From: Lophium mytilinum
Lineage: Eukaryota
Direction of reading: 5' to 3'
DNA length: 64,000 nt
NCBI GenBank assembly: GCA_010093605.1
Contig: MU004187.1
Span: 2,098,882 to 2,162,881, forward strand
Part shown: piece by piece, positions 16,704-25,303 of the stretch
Numbering within the stretch: position 1 is the stretch's first letter
How the letters are laid out: every line of letters begins with the position of its first letter
The notes under the pieces: model-generated
Told to the model about the DNA's origin: nothing
Database searches by the model: none
What the model saw: the letters and a program-made list of their open reading frames with translations, nothing else
Made by a program: the position numbers and the translations under genes

Positions 16704-16969
16704 ATGGCCCCCTCTATGTCGTTAAATATGTAACAATGCCTAGACTTGTAACGTAAGTGTAAGTAATCTCTAGATGTAATGGCCCCCTCTACGTCGTTGA
16801 ATATGTGAACAATGCCCACAATTACTACGTAAGTGTAAGTAACCTCTGCATGCAATGGGCCCTCTACGTGGTTAAATATGTAAACAATTCCTAGACTTGC
16901 AATATAAGTGTAAGTAACCACTGCACGTAACGGCCCCCTCTACGTAGTTGATTGTATAAACAATACCTA
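16704..16969. repeat. Tandem array of about 3.5 copies of a 75-76 bp unit
   Basis: Units start at 16704, 16779, 16855 and 16930 (atggccccctctacgt...aacaatgcctagacttg...taagtgtaagtaa). Confidence 0.9.
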
Positions 16970-17013: not shown

Positions 17014-17418
17014 TTGCTTGCTCAACGCCACCGTCAGGGGTGCCCCCATTAGCAAGTGCCAACTACGCCAAAAGGTAGTCGAAAACTCCGTTCCGTCAGG
17101 GGCGCCCCCACTGTGAGGTGTTTGGCACCGTCTGAAGTCCTCTGGCGCTGCCAACATTGGGAGATAGGATGTCAAAATTCAGGAGGTTCAGATCGTATTG
17201 CGTTGACGTGGGTGGGTCCAGTGTATGTTTGCTGCCGTCTGAAGGCCTCTAAAGGTGCGAAAAATTGCCGACTTCATCAAATGATAGTTCAATTTCTATT
17301 ACATTGACCTTCACATTGGGCACACAGGCACGAGTGTTTGCTCGCTCAACACCACTGTAAGGGTGGCCCCCATTAGCAAGTGCCGACTACGCCAAAAGGT
17401 AGTCTAAATCTCGTTTCC
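17014..17418. repeat. Pair of ~80-bp direct repeats (17014-17094, 17338-17418)
   Basis: Shared core cccccattagcaagtgcc(a/g)actacgccaaaaggtagtc with one mismatch. Confidence 0.85.
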
Positions 17419-17428
17419 TTGGCCAACA

Positions 17429-20400
17429 CTACTGTACGCGGACCTTCGAAGTGACATCCCTAACCCGCTCTCCCCTGAAGAACACGCTGACTACCAGCGC
17501 CGGGAACGTAATCTCAATCTCATACTCAACGAGATACCAAATCCCCTGATCATTCCTAAACTTCCGAAACTCGGCATCCGGATTTCTTCTCGTGAAATCC
17601 GTTCTGATCTCCGCGGCACACTGGACGATACATTGCTGAGAGCCTTGAGGGTAATACAAGTATGGATTCGGTGTGCCCCACTCAAGCGTCGGCAACCCGC
17701 GATCGTCCTCGAACAGGTAGATTTTCCCGGACGGGTCCAGCGTCAGGTTTGCATCAGCTGCCCACAGCTTATCCACCAGCACGAACGGGTCGACGTGGTC
17801 GAACTTGACCATTTTGGACGTCGGAATGCGTATTTTGTGGCCTGATTGGAGTGGCGCGCCGGCACTGAGTACTATGCAGACACAGTTGTTGCAGCGGTCT
17901 TGGTCGGGGCACCTCATTCGGAAGCGTTCGGGGTGCACGCCGGGGATGAAAAAGTCGGCGACCGAGAGGTAGTAGCTCTGCTGAGAGTATGCGCTGGCTT
18001 TCGGCAGGATGTCGGAGCTGAAGTTAGTCAGTCTGTCTGTGAGTCCGGCAGTGACCAGGCCCTTGACGACCGTTGCTTCGCTATCCATCGGTCGCACAAC
18101 GGTGCAATAGTTCCGTGGCATACGCTTTTTGATTTGCTGGAAGAGGTACTCGTTGGCCCCGAAAGAGCCGCAAATTAGCACGTACTGTTGTTGAAAACTT
18201 AGATAGTCGCTGACAGAGAGGGCTTGGACTTGTACGTTACCTGCAGATTGATGTTGCATGCTTGGACGGCGATGACTTGATTATTGATCAACTCTAAAAT
18301 CCTCTCGATGACAGGAGTGAAGCATCCCAGTATCTCTTCGTTGGTGAACGTCATGTATCCATCATCGATGTCTGCTTCCACATAGTCGCGCTCGATCCCG
18401 ACGTCGGTCGCCCACTTCTGGCCATTGTTCCTAAAATCGTCCCTGATACGGCTATCGAACTCTATGATGCTCTTTGCGTACACCCTGCCTGCAGTTTTAG
18501 ATCCATCTGGCAATTTCATTTTACGGACCTTGCTTCGCAGGATGTTGGCGAAGTTGCGATCCACCGCGGTATGTCTAGATGAAATATGTGTTAATAAACG
18601 GCTTGTGCTGCTAGGGTCGATTTACTCACCCGCAAGCATCACCACTACTGCCCGTACATTTCCGGACCTTGAAAGGAGAATTGCTGCGCACTTCGAGCGC
18701 AACAAGGTCCACAAAACTCTTACCGCAATCTACGATCAATATTCCGTCGTGATTCTTCGAATCGAGTAGCCCGGATCTGGTACAATAATGTGCTGACGCT
18801 TCCGGGCCTGGGATGAGAGTCACTCGGGGATCGTGAACATCTTGCACGTATCCAGCCTGTACGATAGCTTTCTTGAAAGCCGTTTTTGCACCTTCTGTCC
18901 ATATTGGAGGATGAGAAAAGTAGTATCGAACGATTGATGCATCGTTAGGAATTCGTGGACCGAGCGATTTCATTAAGGCGACCAGAGCGGCTTCGCGCAG
19001 GCGGGAAAGATAGTCGCCGACTAGATCTACAGCCGACTTTCCAGCTGGAAGGGGCGGTAAGGATTTGGCGTCGAGGTACGGATTTCCACCTTCCAGCTGC
19101 ATATACACGTGTAACCATTCTGCTTTAGTTGTTCCAATTTTGGGCTGTCCATTTGGGCCGAGAGCGTCGGCAGTGTCCAAGCCCCAACCTACAACATTCG
19201 AGGAAATATCGTAATATATTGACGATGGAACCCTGGGCTATTGATTCGTTAGCTAAAATGTGCTAGACAACAAGGAAGCCGTCAGAGCCTACTTTCGTAA
19301 TTAACCCAGCTCCTGGCCATTCCGTTATGATGTCTTCTCTAGCTTCAGTGTCAGTTGCATATGCAAAAGCAACCGACGAGTGCGTGGCCCCAAAGTCGAT
19401 ACCAATTATCAAGTGGGCGTTTGACTTGGCTGACGAGCTTTGATAAATCTGTGGAGCCGATGCAGGTTGATTTGAAGTCGTGCTTCCGTCATTCTTTGTG
19501 ACCCAAGGCATCGCCGCTGGCGCTACTACCTGCGATACTGGTGAAGGTCGATTCGATGACGCGTTCCGGTCGTTCTTTGTGACCCACTGTATTGGTGACT
19601 TGATGGGTGACGGCAGCTGTGAGGAGTTTGGCGAAGCGGTACCCGGCGAATAATGCGATGCAGGTCGCGTAGATGGCCGAGGATCATTGGGCTGGCTCAA
19701 GAGGAAATCTGCGGCCAGTTCCTCGTTCTTGTCGAAATTGAAATAAGCCTGGATCACGGGATCTAGCTCGAAACCGAGGCCACGTAGCTAGAGATATTAG
19801 AGATCAAAAAGAGTAAGAAAGGGAATAGTGAACTGACTCGCTCGATGGCGACCCGTTCCTCTTCTGTCACACTGATGGTGTGTGATCCAGGAGGGAGCTC
19901 GGCGACCTCGTCGATATCTTCAGCAAGAAGCTGGAGGAATTGCTCTGGGTTAGCGGCAATGAGTTTTGCCAGCTGAGGGTTTACGGTGGCTGTTTGCTGC
20001 AGAATCGGCTCTAACATATGGGGCTGTTGCTGAACAACTCGACAAAACTGCTGGAAGTGAGGATCGCTGCGGAGGAACTCGATGCTGCTACCACCAAGCG
20101 CTTGAGAAGTCGTAGAACCAGCCTCGAATGGATTTACAGGGTTTTTTGAGAGCACGGCCGACGGAGTATTTGTAGCGGATGGCGAACGTGTATGTGAATT
20201 GTATGGATTATTGATGTGAGGATTAGGAGATGACGATGGTGTTGAAGCGGATGGCGATCGTACATGGGGGCTGCTTGGATTTAGGTAAGGATTAGTAGAA
20301 GACGATGGCTTTCGGGACTGGATCTGTGCAGGGTTTGAACTGCCAAAAGGCGTAAGGGATGAGCTAGGCTGCTTATATCCTGGTCGGGCAGGCTGAGATT

Positions 20401-22158
20401 GAACTGATCTGGCTGGTGAGGGTTGACGAGGAGGAGGAGATGTTGGCCCTGTTGATCTTATAGATGTTGAATCTGGGGTGTGAACGGTACCGTCCCAGCG
20501 CTTTCCGGGGGACTCTGCAAGGGGACTATTTGCGGGAGGTAGCCCTAGACGGCTGCGGAGAGGATTTCCCGGCTCCTGGACTGACGGAACCAGGAAGTTT
20601 CCTGCTGCACTGGTCGTGTCAGAAACAATGTCCTCGTGGACTAGATCGCGCAAAGGCCTTGCTAAGTATTGGAGAAACCCAGCGTCAACCTCGACGTCGT
20701 ACTTTGCAGGTAAGAAGCCACGGCAGCCCTCAGCTTCAGCCATGTCACCCTTTCTTTCGTGAATGAGCGCGAGAAGTGCCATGGATTCGTGAAATGGTGC
20801 ACTTTCTTTGCCCCCAAGCCTCCGTCTCCCCATCAGCGCCTTCTTACAGTATCGGATAGCGGCATCATGTGCGTCGCCTTGAAGCTTTAGAAGAGCTAAG
20901 GCATGGAGACCGTCATATGCCAGCGGCTCCTTGACCTTTTTAAGGGTAGTGAGGCTAGCAAGAACATTTTCGGCATCTCTCCATCGCGCTTGTTTGCCGT
21001 ACGCGTATGCTTGCATCAACCTGATTTTGGAGACCCCACCTGGCAAGTCGTCTGTTGAACGGCTCACGACTTTGCATAGGAATCTCTCGGCATTCGGATA
21101 GTCTCCGGCTGTGAAACTTGATATAGCGAGGTCATTGAAGTTCTTCACAAAGTCTCTCTCCATATCGGAGTCCGGATCGGAGTCTTCTAGCTCGACATCT
21201 TCGGTCGTACCGCTAACTGATTCATTGGCTTCTGTGCCTTCTTCTTCGATTGTAGGAGGAGGTATCCAGTTTTCAATGCGCTGGGCCTGATCATCGCTCA
21301 AAGGATCGCCGTAAACAGAACCGCCCCATATCGTACCCTCGCCTACAACTGTGCTGGCACTGGAATGGAATGATTCTGCAACACGAACGAATTGTCTCAA
21401 GTTGCGTGAGATGCGTTCGTTATCCTCTTGCACGTCGGAAGATGGCGGCTCGGAAGAATCGTTTCGAGACCTAACCGCAACTTCTACTCTGCCAATTTGG
21501 GTTTTAAGATCACCAAGAACCCGGGACATTGATTCTTGGGACGAGCCGCTTCTTAGCAACAAGAGTCTAGAATGATGTGAGCACTCCCCGAATGAAAATA
21601 TACGCATACATATGAGACGACGGCAATCAAAGAGCTTACACGTTGATCATTTGGAAGGCGGATTGCATTGCACTGTTATGGGAATGTACCTGCTGCCGGA
21701 AGGCCGTGATATCTTTCATCATCATGTTCAACTTTATCGACATTGTCGGCTTCCGGAGGAACCCTCTCCCCAGGAAGCTGGTCTTCTGCACCTCTACGAG
21801 CCGCTTGTCCAATTTCCCTAGCGTAATCTGGCAGTCGTCCAGCGACCCTCGGACTGTGATCCATAGATCCCGATCTCCAGTTTTCTGAGTAGTCGCAAGA
21901 AGCGGATTCTGCTTCCAGGAGTGGCCGACTGCATTGAGGGCGCGTTGAAGACCATTTATCTCTTCGCATAGGCCAGCTACACTATCGTCTACGCCTCGGG
22001 CATCGTCTATGAAGGTGTAAAGTATCCCTGAGACCTTTTCACTGCGAATCAGTCTGACGCTCGATACGCTGGACACTCCAGCACCTCGGGTGGGTACTGA
22101 CCTTGATACAGAGGCCAGCGATGCCTGCGGCGGACGATGCAATGGACAAGGGATCCAT
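17429..22158 (-). CDS. Chimeric 1457-aa protein: HeLo-like fungal N-terminal domain + TPR-like repeats + Ser/Pro linker + Rad23-type XPC-binding/UBA + HSPA12-type Hsp70 domain
   Basis: Exons 22158-22102, 22034-21640, 21566-19838, 19787-19293, 19237-18630, 18574-18241, 18184-17429. All six introns are GT-AG (50-73 nt) with compatible phases; total 4374 nt with no internal stop. Markers: MDPLSIASSAAGIAGLCIK start; LEPILQQ..NPQLAKLI..VTEEERVAIERLRGLGF..VIQAYF..DKNEELAADFL; IIGIDFG..EDIITEWPGAG..GYMTFTNEEIL. Confidence 0.85.
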
Positions 22159-22483
22159 CGCAGCATTTTACCGGCAAAGCTTCTGGCGGAGGACAAGTTG
22201 TCCATGAAGTGACTGCGAGAGCCGCCTTCCACGGGCGCCATGAGGGGCGCTTCCAGATCGCGAGGCTGAGTTCTCGGTTGTCTTCTGCATTTCGAGTTAG
22301 GATAGTTCTAAACCTTGGAAGCTGGGATATTCACGTGATGCTGCTCTACGGCATACTCCATGAGTTCCCCCGCTGCAGCATCCCGTACCAACGCGTCTTG
22401 CATCGCGTTCTTGGAAACTTTTCTACAGCACGCCCGAGATACTCAATCTCTGGGCACTCAACCTCTTATTGTCCCCGTTCGCG

Positions 22484-25303
22484 ATGATTCAGAAGCCATT
22501 TAGACCACCGCTGCTGACCAGGAAGCCGGCCGAAGCTCCCCGACCAGAGTTCAATCACGCAGCAGATACAGAACCGCCCTCCAAAAAGCGACGCATCTCC
22601 TCCAACGATGACGATAGCCAGTTCGATGCTGTCACTACAACTCTTTCAAAACCACATAACCACGTCAACACAGCCCGAAAGCCATTGGTTCCGGTCCGCA
22701 ATCCTTCGAGCTTGAGCAGCGCTCCAGCAAAACCGTCTGGAGGAGTAGAGGGATACTATGTAGTCTTGTGGCGCAAGTTCACGATGAAGAAAAACAAAAC
22801 CTGGGACGGTGACGGAGTCCTTGCCGTGTTCAACGGATACGCATATCTCCAAGATATCTCCGGAAGGGAGCTTGGGAAGACCGCCTGCACCTCGCCATTA
22901 CTACCAGGCTCCACCCTTTCCGTGGGAGGAAAAGATGTCGAGGTTGACTCTTTAATCTCGAAGGAAGACTTCCTCGCTGGCAAGCCCTTTTTGGGCAAAA
23001 TGTCGACTGCTGCAGCGCCAGCGCCAGTGTCAGACCCAGAACGCAGACCACTTCCAAAACCCAAGCTTAAAGTGAAAGAGGAGAAGATAGCAGCCCGCCA
23101 AGTAGAGGTTCTGAATGTTGCCGCCCCAGCCAGCAAAGCTACCCAGAGCAAGTTCAAGAATCCTTTGCTATCCAATACTGTCATGACCAAGCCTGTCGAC
23201 AAAGAGACTCCCCTTCCCCGGCATGATCCAACTACAGAAAACGCCCTCGTCATGAAAAGACCGACTATACGTCCGCAGGGCAAGCAAATTGTGGACGTGG
23301 TAGTAGATCCTGTTCTCTCCAAGCATCTCCGGGACCATCAACGTGAAGGCGTCCAGTTCCTGTACGAGTGTGTGATGGGCATGAGATCTAACGGCGAAGG
23401 GGCCATACTTGCGGATGAGATGGGCCTAGGAAAGACTTTGCAAACCATCGCGCTACTCTGGACTCTACTCAAGCAGAATCCAATCTACCAAGAAGGTCCC
23501 GTGGTGAAAAAGGCACTCATTGTGTGTCCCGCTGGACTTCTGAACAATTGGCGAAGAGAGTTTAGAAAGTGGCTTGGAAATGAAAGAATTGGAGTCTTCG
23601 TTGTTGAAGGGAAGAACGTTCGCCTGGCTGACTTCACTAAAGGAAAAGCCTACAGCGTTATGATCATTGGCTATGAAATGCTTCGTAACGTGCAGGAACA
23701 ACTCAAGAAGGGTAGCGGGATCGATATTGTCATCGCTGATGAAGGCCATCGACTTAAGACCGCGAACAACAAGGCAATGCTAGCAATACAGTCCCTTAAC
23801 ACGGACCGAAGGATCATACTTTCAGGGACCCCGCTGCAGAACGATTTGAGCGAGTTCTACACGGCTATCGACTTCGTCAATCCAGGCTTATTAGGAAAGC
23901 GGAACGTGTTCAAGAAGGAATTTGAGAACCCAATCATGCGAGGTCGGCAACCAGAGGCAACCGCAAAGGATCACGAAAAAGGTGAAGCCCGATGGCAGGA
24001 ACTCGTCTCGATTGCAGGCCAATTTATGATCCGCCGCACTGCCGATGTGCTGGCGAAGTATCTGCCGCCCAAGAGCGAGTACATCTTGTTCTGCAAACCA
24101 ACACCTGTTCAGTCAACCGTTTACACGAACGTGCTAAAGTCTCCGTTTTTCTCCGCAGCTCTTGGGAACACTGAAACCGCTCTGCAACTCATCAACATCT
24201 TGAAGAAGGTGTGCAACAGCCCGACGCTTCTCAAAGCTAAAAATCCCGACGATGCTCCTTCAGAGATGCTAGCGAGCTTCACAGCTGCCATTGCACCTTC
24301 AGTACTCTCATCCAATCGGTGCAGCTCCAAAATCAGGGTTCTCGACGCCTTGCTACATCGCATCCATACGAACACCGATGAGAAGGTTGTCATAGTCTCG
24401 AATTACACGTCCACACTAGATATCATCGGTCGCCTCCTTTCTTCTCTGGACTATGCGTTCCTCCGGCTGGACGGCTCCACTCCAGCGTCGAAACGCCAGG
24501 ATCTTGTGGAACGCTTCAATAGGACTAGCCAGAAGAGTTGTTTCGCTTTCCTGCTCTCCGCCAAATCCGGCGGTGTTGGCCTTAATCTGATTGGCGCCTC
24601 CCGACTCGTTCTATTCGACTTAGACTGGAATCCCGCCACCGACCTTCAAGCCATGGCGAGGATACATCGCGATGGACAGAAGAAACCATGCAAAATCTAT
24701 CGTTTGCTTGTGCAAGGCGCTTTAGACGAGAAGATCTTCCAGCGACAGGTCACCAAGCAGGGTCTCGCGGACGCTGTTGTCGACAAAAAGGCCAGCGCCG
24801 CCAGTTTCTCCCACGAGGAGCTAAGAGACTTGTTCAGCTTGGACGAAAAGGATCACTGCCAGACACATGACCTGATTGGATGCACATGCGAGGGTAAAGG
24901 TCATGATGCCCCTATCGTACCCATCACTTCCGCGGAACTGGTCTTAGACACCGAACCTACAGATGTGGTTGATAGCGATGAGGAACTTCCAGACCTACCA
25001 ACTCTGCTGAGAGCATCTCAGGTCAACATGGAAGAGCAAGAGCAGCGACTGAAAGAGCAAAGAGAGGCGAGAACCAAGCTAACAACCGACGGAAAGCCAA
25101 AATTGAGGTCTCTCATGCAGTACCAGCACCTGGATCCGCGCTACCTGTCCCCCACGAGAGCAGAATCAGAGTCGGAAGGAGCTGTTCGAGAAGACCATGT
25201 CGACATCGAGACGCTTATGGATGATGACATTTTGCTTGATATTCTGAAAGCAGGAGATGAGCATTGCAGCATCGGCTTCGTTTTTGCGAAGATGTCGTCT
25301 TGA
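22484..25303 (+). CDS. RDH54: SNF2-family DNA translocase Rdh54/Tid1 (RAD54B-like)
   Basis: LADEMGLGKTLQ, DEGH, SGTPLQN, LSAKSGGVGLNL and QAMARIHRDGQ motifs; N-terminal WRKFTMKKNKTWDGDG motif typical of Rdh54/Rad54B. Confidence 0.9.
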   Translation: MIQKPFRPPLLTRKPAEAPRPEFNHAADTEPPSKKRRISSNDDDSQFDAVTTTLSKPHNHVNTARKPLVPVRNPSSLSSAPAKPSGGVEGYYVVLWRKFTMKKNKTWDGDGVLAVFNGYAYLQDISGRELGKTACTSPLLPGSTLSVGGKDVEVDSLISKEDFLAGKPFLGKMSTAAAPAPVSDPERRPLPKPKLKVKEEKIAARQVEVLNVAAPASKATQSKFKNPLLSNTVMTKPVDKETPLPRHDPTTENALVMKRPTIRPQGKQIVDVVVDPVLSKHLRDHQREGVQFLYECVMGMRSNGEGAILADEMGLGKTLQTIALLWTLLKQNPIYQEGPVVKKALIVCPAGLLNNWRREFRKWLGNERIGVFVVEGKNVRLADFTKGKAYSVMIIGYEMLRNVQEQLKKGSGIDIVIADEGHRLKTANNKAMLAIQSLNTDRRIILSGTPLQNDLSEFYTAIDFVNPGLLGKRNVFKKEFENPIMRGRQPEATAKDHEKGEARWQELVSIAGQFMIRRTADVLAKYLPPKSEYILFCKPTPVQSTVYTNVLKSPFFSAALGNTETALQLINILKKVCNSPTLLKAKNPDDAPSEMLASFTAAIAPSVLSSNRCSSKIRVLDALLHRIHTNTDEKVVIVSNYTSTLDIIGRLLSSLDYAFLRLDGSTPASKRQDLVERFNRTSQKSCFAFLLSAKSGGVGLNLIGASRLVLFDLDWNPATDLQAMARIHRDGQKKPCKIYRLLVQGALDEKIFQRQVTKQGLADAVVDKKASAASFSHEELRDLFSLDEKDHCQTHDLIGCTCEGKGHDAPIVPITSAELVLDTEPTDVVDSDEELPDLPTLLRASQVNMEEQEQRLKEQREARTKLTTDGKPKLRSLMQYQHLDPRYLSPTRAESESEGAVREDHVDIETLMDDDILLDILKAGDEHCSIGFVFAKMSS

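Follow-up and report, generated by a model that had tools for sequence, protein, structure and literature searches.

Evidence for in-frame capture of a genomic RAD23 fragment, intron included, by a PigL_N-TPR-Hsp70-like gene of Lophium mytilinum

How does the C-terminal half of RAD23 come to lie, with an intron inside it, in the genome of the fungus Lophium mytilinum without the domains that normally precede it, and what might it do there? The window considered here is a stretch of 64,000 nucleotides (contig MU004187.1 of assembly GCA_010093605.1, positions 2,098,882 to 2,162,881 of the forward strand), in which a first-pass annotation had described a short peptide as a captured part of RAD23 that contains the XPC-binding domain and the second ubiquitin-associated domain (UBA2) and lacks both the ubiquitin-like domain (UBL) and UBA1. 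In our analysis this peptide, hereafter the module, is an internal part of a much larger protein that combines a PigL_N-type N-terminal domain, a TPR region and an Hsp70-like domain. The reading that we regard as very probable is that of a lineage-specific chimera, in which another gene received, in frame, the genomic 3' half of a RAD23 gene of Dothideomycete type.

Both domains of the module are recognised by Pfam, the XPC-binding domain (PF09280) at E 9.5e-20 (70.5 bits against a cut-off of 26.4; window positions 19916-20080) and the UBA domain (PF00627) at E 1.3e-5 (25.4 bits against a cut-off of 22.4, from position 19787). By BLASTP the module aligns to residues ~226-387 of the 390 of fungal RAD23, with 73-75% identity over the conserved part; in RAD23 terms it thus begins in the linker behind UBA1 and ends three residues short of the native stop codon, with ~26 residues of the Gly/Ala linker missing. 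No exon of the gene gave a Pfam match to the UBL (PF00240), and the single UBA match aligns to UBA2 in both Pfam and BLASTP, leaving no UBA1. Likewise, when a full-length RAD23 (P0002) was compared with the 64-kb window by tblastn, the sole match was to residues 257-387, with neither UBL nor UBA1. Of the 57 RAD23 alignment columns that are at least 90% conserved, 49 are unchanged in the module, including the UBA2 Gly-Phe loop; since both Pfam scores also lie above their cut-offs, the fold of the module has probably been kept. UBA2 is not terminal, as ~690 residues lie behind it, beginning with an 86-residue Ser/Pro-rich linker.

The gene model, which was built from the sequence, has six introns, all GT..AG, of 67, 73, 50, 55, 55 and 56 nt. 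A single 4759-nt contig from sequencing run X3 covers positions 17200-22017 with 0 mismatches to the window and is made up of the pieces 17200-18184, 18241-18574, 18630-19237, 19293-19787, 19838-21566 and 21640-22017. What is absent from it, exactly, are the segments 18185-18240, 18575-18629, 19238-19292, 19788-19837 and 21567-21639, that is, introns 2-6. DNA run X1, the probable source, contains none of the splice joints of X3 and retains all five introns. X3 comes from another sample and another study than X1, and its label as RNA is a guess; we take its contig to be RNA-derived because it is missing the five introns that the DNA run keeps. In this contig exons 2-7 are joined, so that a single message holds the RAD23 piece together with the N-terminal domain and TPR region before it and the Hsp70-like part after it. 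Run X4 derives from a relative whose contig pieces, as listed, diverge by 2.5-9.4% in nucleotide sequence; introns 1 (22035-22101), 2 and 6 are removed in X4, and a joint falls at the same donor, 19838. The exon 1/2 junction is identical in a database protein of 94% identity (P0122), and the region is present in runs from three studies. The chimera is transcribed as one mRNA from which all six introns are spliced. The first-pass description of the peptide, its coordinates, its 50-nt intron (19788-19837) and its missing domains is therefore borne out by the Pfam matches, the GT..AG borders, the exact removal of the intron in X3 and the tblastn result. The notion of a captured RAD23 C-terminal part survives as far as the domains go, but not as a separate truncated gene, because the piece is internal to a protein of 1457 residues that is read from one spliced message.

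The origin of the module was traced by a search of 5.8 billion proteins, which, for proteins 344-1098 residues long, gave 348 matches at E<=0.001 from 653 candidates. The best 120 matches listed are all fungal RAD23, and 119 of them contain a UBL; the sole exception, a gene model in ENA (P0056), runs into an intron right after the sequence AIER. Closest among the matches listed are those from Dothideomycetes (Glonium, Lophium, Zopfia and Cenococcum), at 73-75% identity. A scan of metagenomes with a three-row alignment of RAD23 C-termini yielded 80 loci, all of them canonical RAD23, its search patterns not being contained in the module, so that orthologs of the fusion could not surface in it. 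In 26 of these 80 native loci a GT..AG intron of ~40-90 nt lies exactly after AIER, between the R and the following L and in phase 0, which is the site of the intron in the module. A further 24 look genomic, having other alignment breaks, and carry no intron at that site (e.g. L001, on a 19-kb contig), and the remaining 30 are without any break and are either cDNA-like or intronless. These counts suggest that the UBA2 site is a common and probably old RAD23 intron position that has been lost in some lineages. Intron status also differs between similar Dothideomycete-like genomic contigs whose C-termini are 87-98% identical (L001, L026 and L033/L034 versus L066, L079 and L010), and the intron would therefore have been lost repeatedly or recently in that group.

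Because the module keeps an intron at the native RAD23 site, genomic DNA was copied and not a processed mRNA, and the DNA-level capture proposed in the first-pass annotation is upheld by the native loci with an intron at the same codon boundary. In a maximum-likelihood tree of the module and 36 RAD23 C-termini with an assignable taxon (the other 84 of the 120 were left out), the module is not part of the Eurotiomycete/Lecanoromycete clade (support 83/91) and is placed within an unresolved Dothideomycete group, nearest to Cenococcum and Glonium. This placement agrees with the lineage of the closest ortholog of the host gene.

That ortholog also indicates the direction of the event. An annotated protein of 703 residues from Mytilinidion resinicola (P0121) is 73% identical to the chimera over 693 residues without a gap; its first 10 residues are the 10 residues that precede the module, and from residue 11 onward it follows the sequence that stands directly after the module. 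The M. resinicola protein, as aligned, crosses the empty insertion site. Three further family members (P0123, which is 84% identical in the TPR part, P0125 and P0127) pass directly from the TPR region through the Ser/Pro linker to the start of the Hsp70-like domain. Among proteins of 1099-3135 residues, none in the 5.8-billion-protein set contained the module, which is weak evidence. The module itself occurs in the present species and in the close relative represented by X4. Judged from these alignments, the module is a derived insertion into a pre-existing PigL_N-TPR-Hsp70-like gene.

The family to which the host gene belongs is best seen from its conserved middle part. Residues 152-486 match 505 proteins at E<=1e-3 and 57 at E<=1e-30 in a full-library HMMER search, the closest being 94% and 84% identical. 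Among the 150 best representatives the middle part is found in all 150, the N-terminal domain in 33 and the Hsp70-like domain in 25, while the RAD23 module and the last ~200 residues are found in none. Exon 2 of the window on its own matches the PigL_N family (PF17111) at E 1.1e-3 and 18.9 bits, under the cut-off of 27.2, whereas the 94%-identical relative with a full N-terminus (P0122) scores 35.1 bits, over that cut-off, and the domain is found in 16 of the 36 family members scanned. The host gene is assigned to a fungal PigL_N-TPR-Hsp70-like family. The C-terminal ends of its relatives vary, with ankyrin repeats in one (P0152) and a RanBP1 domain in two others (P0159, P0193); the PigL_N-TPR scaffold seems, from such cases, to acquire foreign C-terminal domains repeatedly.

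The Hsp70-like part was assigned through structure, because sequence methods miss the relationship. Neither the corresponding exons nor P0121 gave a Pfam match even at E<=10, and searches of PDB sequences returned one chance-level match for exon 5 and none for P0121. The AlphaFold (AF2) model of P0121 has a mean predicted local distance difference test score of 63, with a core at residues ~200-500 that is mostly at 80-94. In a Foldseek search with this model, the top 50 matches listed were all nucleotide-binding domains of the Hsp70 family (DnaK, BiP, mortalin, Ssz1), at E ~1e-15 and template modelling (TM) scores by target of up to 0.76. The nearest ESM Atlas clusters of P0121 were HSP70/HSPA12A-like, with a feature score of 0.98 and a TM score of 0.81. 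A C-terminal Hsp70-type nucleotide-binding fold is therefore predicted to be present in the chimera, by way of its 73%-identical ortholog. The motifs that would correspond to phosphate-1, phosphate-2 and adenosine are IIGIDFGATHSS, LIVDCGKSFVD and VLICGSFGANEY. The C-terminal ~200 residues have no Pfam match, and the confidence of the P0121 model is low there. The features of the gene are collected in Table 1.

Table 1. Features of the chimeric gene, with positions in the 64,000-nucleotide window (aa, amino acid residues of the predicted protein).
Feature	Position	Strand	Details	Basis
Whole chimeric coding sequence	22158-17429	minus	7 exons; coding sequence of 4374 nt; 1457 aa	Model built from sequence
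Exons 1 to 7	22158-22102, 22034-21640, 21566-19838, 19787-19293, 19237-18630, 18574-18241, 18184-17429	minus		
PigL_N type helical domain, aa 1-150	21640-22158	minus	Exons 1-2, with 67-nt intron 22035-22101	Pfam PF17111
TPR region inside conserved middle part, aa 152-480	20729-21019	minus		Weak TPR_12 and TPR_16 matches
Ser/Pro-rich linker 1, aa 481-625	20144-20578	minus	S 22%, P 20%; upstream flank of insertion	
RAD23 module, aa ~628-764	19680-20143	minus		Pfam and RAD23 alignment
Module part 1 (end of exon 3)	19838-20143	minus	Remnant of RAD23 inter-domain linker, XPC-binding four-helix domain, start of UBA2 (19838-19861)	PF09280; alignment to P0001, P0002, P0008
Phase-0 intron within UBA2	19788-19837	minus	50 nt; GT..AG; CTAAT branch site	Exactly skipped in X3 contig
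Module part 2 (start of exon 4)	19680-19787	minus	Remaining UBA2 (19701-19787) and RAD23 C-terminal tail	PF00627; alignment
Ser/Pro-rich linker 2, aa 765-850	19419-19676	minus	Downstream flank of insertion	Collinear with P0121 residues 11-97
Predicted HSPA12-like Hsp70 nucleotide-binding (actin-fold) domain, aa ~851-1260	18023-19418	minus	Exons 4-7	P0121 identity and structure
C-terminal region, aa 1261-1457	17432-18022	minus	~200 aa; no family	Matched by P0121 alone in database search

We propose, tentatively, that the module serves as a recruitment handle on a flexible tether, binding ubiquitin and other partners; the activities and the cellular role that we infer would be as follows. UBA2 would bind ubiquitin or polyubiquitin; the ligands of the four-helix XPC-binding domain would be the customary helical ones, of Rad4/XPC or Png1 type. 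Having landed in a disordered linker, rich in Ser and Pro, that separates the TPR region from the HSPA12-like Hsp70 ATPase domain, the captured copy, which comprises the linker behind UBA1, the XPC-binding domain and UBA2 with its intron, could bring ubiquitylated proteins or partners of Rad4/Png1 type to a scaffold of TPRs and an atypical Hsp70. Such clients would be held or handed over and not shuttled to degradation, and docking to the proteasome in the manner of RAD23 is not expected because the UBL is missing. Taken as a whole, i.e. capture together with a role in recruitment, this explanation seems to us to have a little better than an even chance of being correct.

Several points weigh against it. 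The empty insertion site is seen in an annotated protein, P0121, and not in DNA of M. resinicola, and among the X4 contigs listed no single one links the module to both of its flanks. In the tree, the module sits on an end branch of 1.76 changes per column, ~18 times longer than those of the native RAD23 C-termini, whose median is 0.098. Eight of the 57 strongly conserved positions are altered, in the stretches LRQ, which has become FCR, and VGAG, which has become TATV. Given the branch length and these changes, the constraint on the module may be relaxed or altered and partner binding may have been lost. Moreover, when 10 of the 80 native loci were compared with the module, synonymous divergence (dS) was saturated or undefined, with nonsynonymous divergence (dN) at 0.17-0.27, and the saturation of dS means that the comparison with those loci yields neither an age for the module nor a measure of selection on it. 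The open frame does not argue for function of the module either, as a stop codon there would also delete the downstream Hsp70-like domain. Lastly, the phosphate-2 motif (residues 1059-1071, exon 5, ~18700-18740, minus strand) reads DCGKSFVD, or DCGASFVD in the M. resinicola ortholog, and is degenerate relative to the Gly-rich loop of canonical Hsp70s; the ATPase of this Hsp70-like subfamily may, to judge from it, be weak or dead.

Some of these points would also fit a neutral passenger, a RAD23 piece that fell into an insertion-tolerant disordered linker, did no harm to the host protein and has no function. The site lies within ~230 residues of Ser/Pro-rich low-complexity linker, the branch is very long, and the frame would be kept by selection on the downstream domain in any case. 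The distribution is narrow as well, since the module is known from this species and a close relative and is absent from all 150 family representatives and from P0121. A passenger would not, however, be expected to retain 49 of 57 strongly conserved positions at an overall identity of only ~73%, to keep both Pfam domains over their cut-offs and to have its intron cleanly spliced; in addition, a contig of the relative (X4) spans 261 nt of the module (19899-20159) free of gaps, with 23 differences. On balance we think a passenger unlikely.

The RAD23 C-terminal half might instead be an integrated decoy or bait, mimicking RAD23 so that a RAD23-targeting factor of a pathogen, mycovirus or competitor triggers the protein. 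In its detailed form, a factor from a mycovirus or from a bacterial or fungal antagonist would engage the bait and switch on the HeLo-like/PigL_N domain, and the chimera would then be an immune-like protein of a non-NLR kind. We hold this to be improbable, and the detailed form is no less so. The N-terminus is of the PigL_N type (PF17111), a type of domain linked to fungal STAND/NLR proteins, the family swaps its C-terminal ends, among them RanBP1, another housekeeping domain, and the fast evolution of the module would suit a bait. Yet neither NACHT nor NB-ARC was matched by Pfam in the exons of the window, in the 36 family members scanned or in P0121, the order of domains is unlike that of an NLR, and for the host protein no trigger or cell-death output is known; nor do we know of any effector that targets fungal RAD23. 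The precedents come from elsewhere. Putative decoys copied from the housekeeping kinase CHK-2 are described in fungal NLRs, those of Sordariales (PMC12258605), and plant RAD23 is an effector target through its UBA2, which is bound by phytoplasma phyllogens (PMC10799209). With such integrated domains, including those of plant NLRs (NLR-IDs), the chimera shares a copied housekeeping fragment fused into a multidomain protein, an N-terminal domain of a type known from fungal STAND proteins and a family in which C-terminal ends are swapped; it differs in having no NOD (NACHT/NB-ARC) and in carrying the piece in its centre and not at an end.

A role for UBA2 in cis was also suggested in the first-pass annotation, namely that it shields the linker-rich protein from proteasomal degradation, as it does in Rad23, and this now appears less likely than it did, indeed very improbable. 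The long unstructured linkers could serve as initiation sites for degradation, and the Gly-Phe loop, which contributes to protection according to PMC3105319, is kept. In the same paper, however, UBA2 protects only from the C-terminus, and an unstructured stretch of at least 20 residues added behind it abolishes the effect, whereas here UBA2 is internal, with 86 disordered residues of the Ser/Pro linker and ~600 more behind it. That the piece is a separate truncated RAD23 paralogue, or an assembly artefact joining unrelated DNA, has nothing in its favour beyond the peptide read in isolation and is scarcely credible, as start and stop codons are absent around the piece, the frame is continuous into both flanks, one spliced transcript contig crosses both junctions, and the junctions, for which the first-pass annotation had asked whether misassembly might be at work, are spanned by contigs of independent runs, the region being present in runs from three studies.

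We return, then, to a captured module with a possible role in recruitment, and ask how it compares with known systems. With RAD23, Rhp23 and hHR23 the module shares an XPC-binding domain and a UBA2 that are homologous at 73-75% identity and identically ordered, with an intron site in common and the C-terminal tail retained. Unlike RAD23, it is without UBL and UBA1, has lost the ~26 residues of Gly/Ala linker and is internal in a 1457-residue protein; of four features of the RAD23 family the chimera has one, the XPC-binding domain, and lacks the UBL, UBA1 and a terminal UBA2. With HSPA12A/B-like Hsp70 proteins and the fungal PigL_N-TPR-Hsp70-like family, the host protein shares the middle/TPR region, the Hsp70-like domain and the structural match to the Hsp70 nucleotide-binding domain, and it differs from that family in its RAD23-derived module, with the phosphate-2 motif degenerate and the Pfam HSP70 family giving no score.

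There is also a likeness to Ubiquilin/Dsk2, with its order of UBL, STI1 and UBA, and to Hop/Sti1, in which TPRs and DP/STI1 domains work with Hsp70. The XPC-binding domain is structurally akin to STI1, and the chimera, as predicted, would likewise combine a helical STI1-like domain, a UBA, TPRs and an Hsp70-type ATPase. It differs, however, in having all of these parts on one polypeptide and no UBL, no STI1 match was given by Pfam in the exons of the window, and the likeness is one of logic only. The literature was searched for HeLo-like/TPR/fungal Hsp70 proteins and for fungal fusions of XPC-binding and Hsp70 domains, and the architecture was not found in print. Every part is of a familiar kind, and what is new, as far as those searches reach, is the architecture, together with the documented capture.

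The surroundings of the gene are ordinary, with a divergent SNF2/RAD54-like helicase, a histidine phosphatase, a PAP2 protein and an amino-acid permease as neighbours. The helicase is an open frame of 979 codons on the plus strand (22364-25303), with SNF2-related and Helicase_C domains and RAD54-like, and ~200-300 nt separate its start from that of the chimera; that a gene of DNA-repair type adjoins a RAD23 fragment looks coincidental. Within linker 2 (19419-19676, minus strand) two WVTKN motifs stand ~45 residues apart as a short internal repeat, which is kept in the M. resinicola ortholog. Immediately downstream of the gene, at 16704-16969, a 75-nt unit is repeated in tandem, in 3.5 copies with 80% matches, and in the 3' flank (17200-17412) a 75-nt stretch (17338-17412) recurs ~213 nt away, giving a joint that goes back on itself in both X1 and X3. 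This 75-nt repeat might represent a small repeated element that lies within the 3' untranslated region or close to it.

What the locus offers is a clean and datable example of the birth of a multidomain protein in fungi, in which part of an essential housekeeping gene was captured in frame together with its intron and is expressed, with an ortholog that crosses the insertion point while a close relative carries the insert. Were the module only a passenger, it would still show disordered linkers to be landing sites for domain capture; were it a decoy, which we have judged improbable, it would extend the integrated-decoy principle to a class of receptor with an Hsp70-type ATPase in place of a NOD. 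On the reading that we favour, a predicted ubiquitin- and Rad4/Png1-binding unit has been set beside an atypical Hsp70 of a poorly understood family. As the N-terminal domain is of a type shared with fungal immune-like proteins, the chimera may provide a handle on the role of that family, be it in protein quality control or in surveillance.

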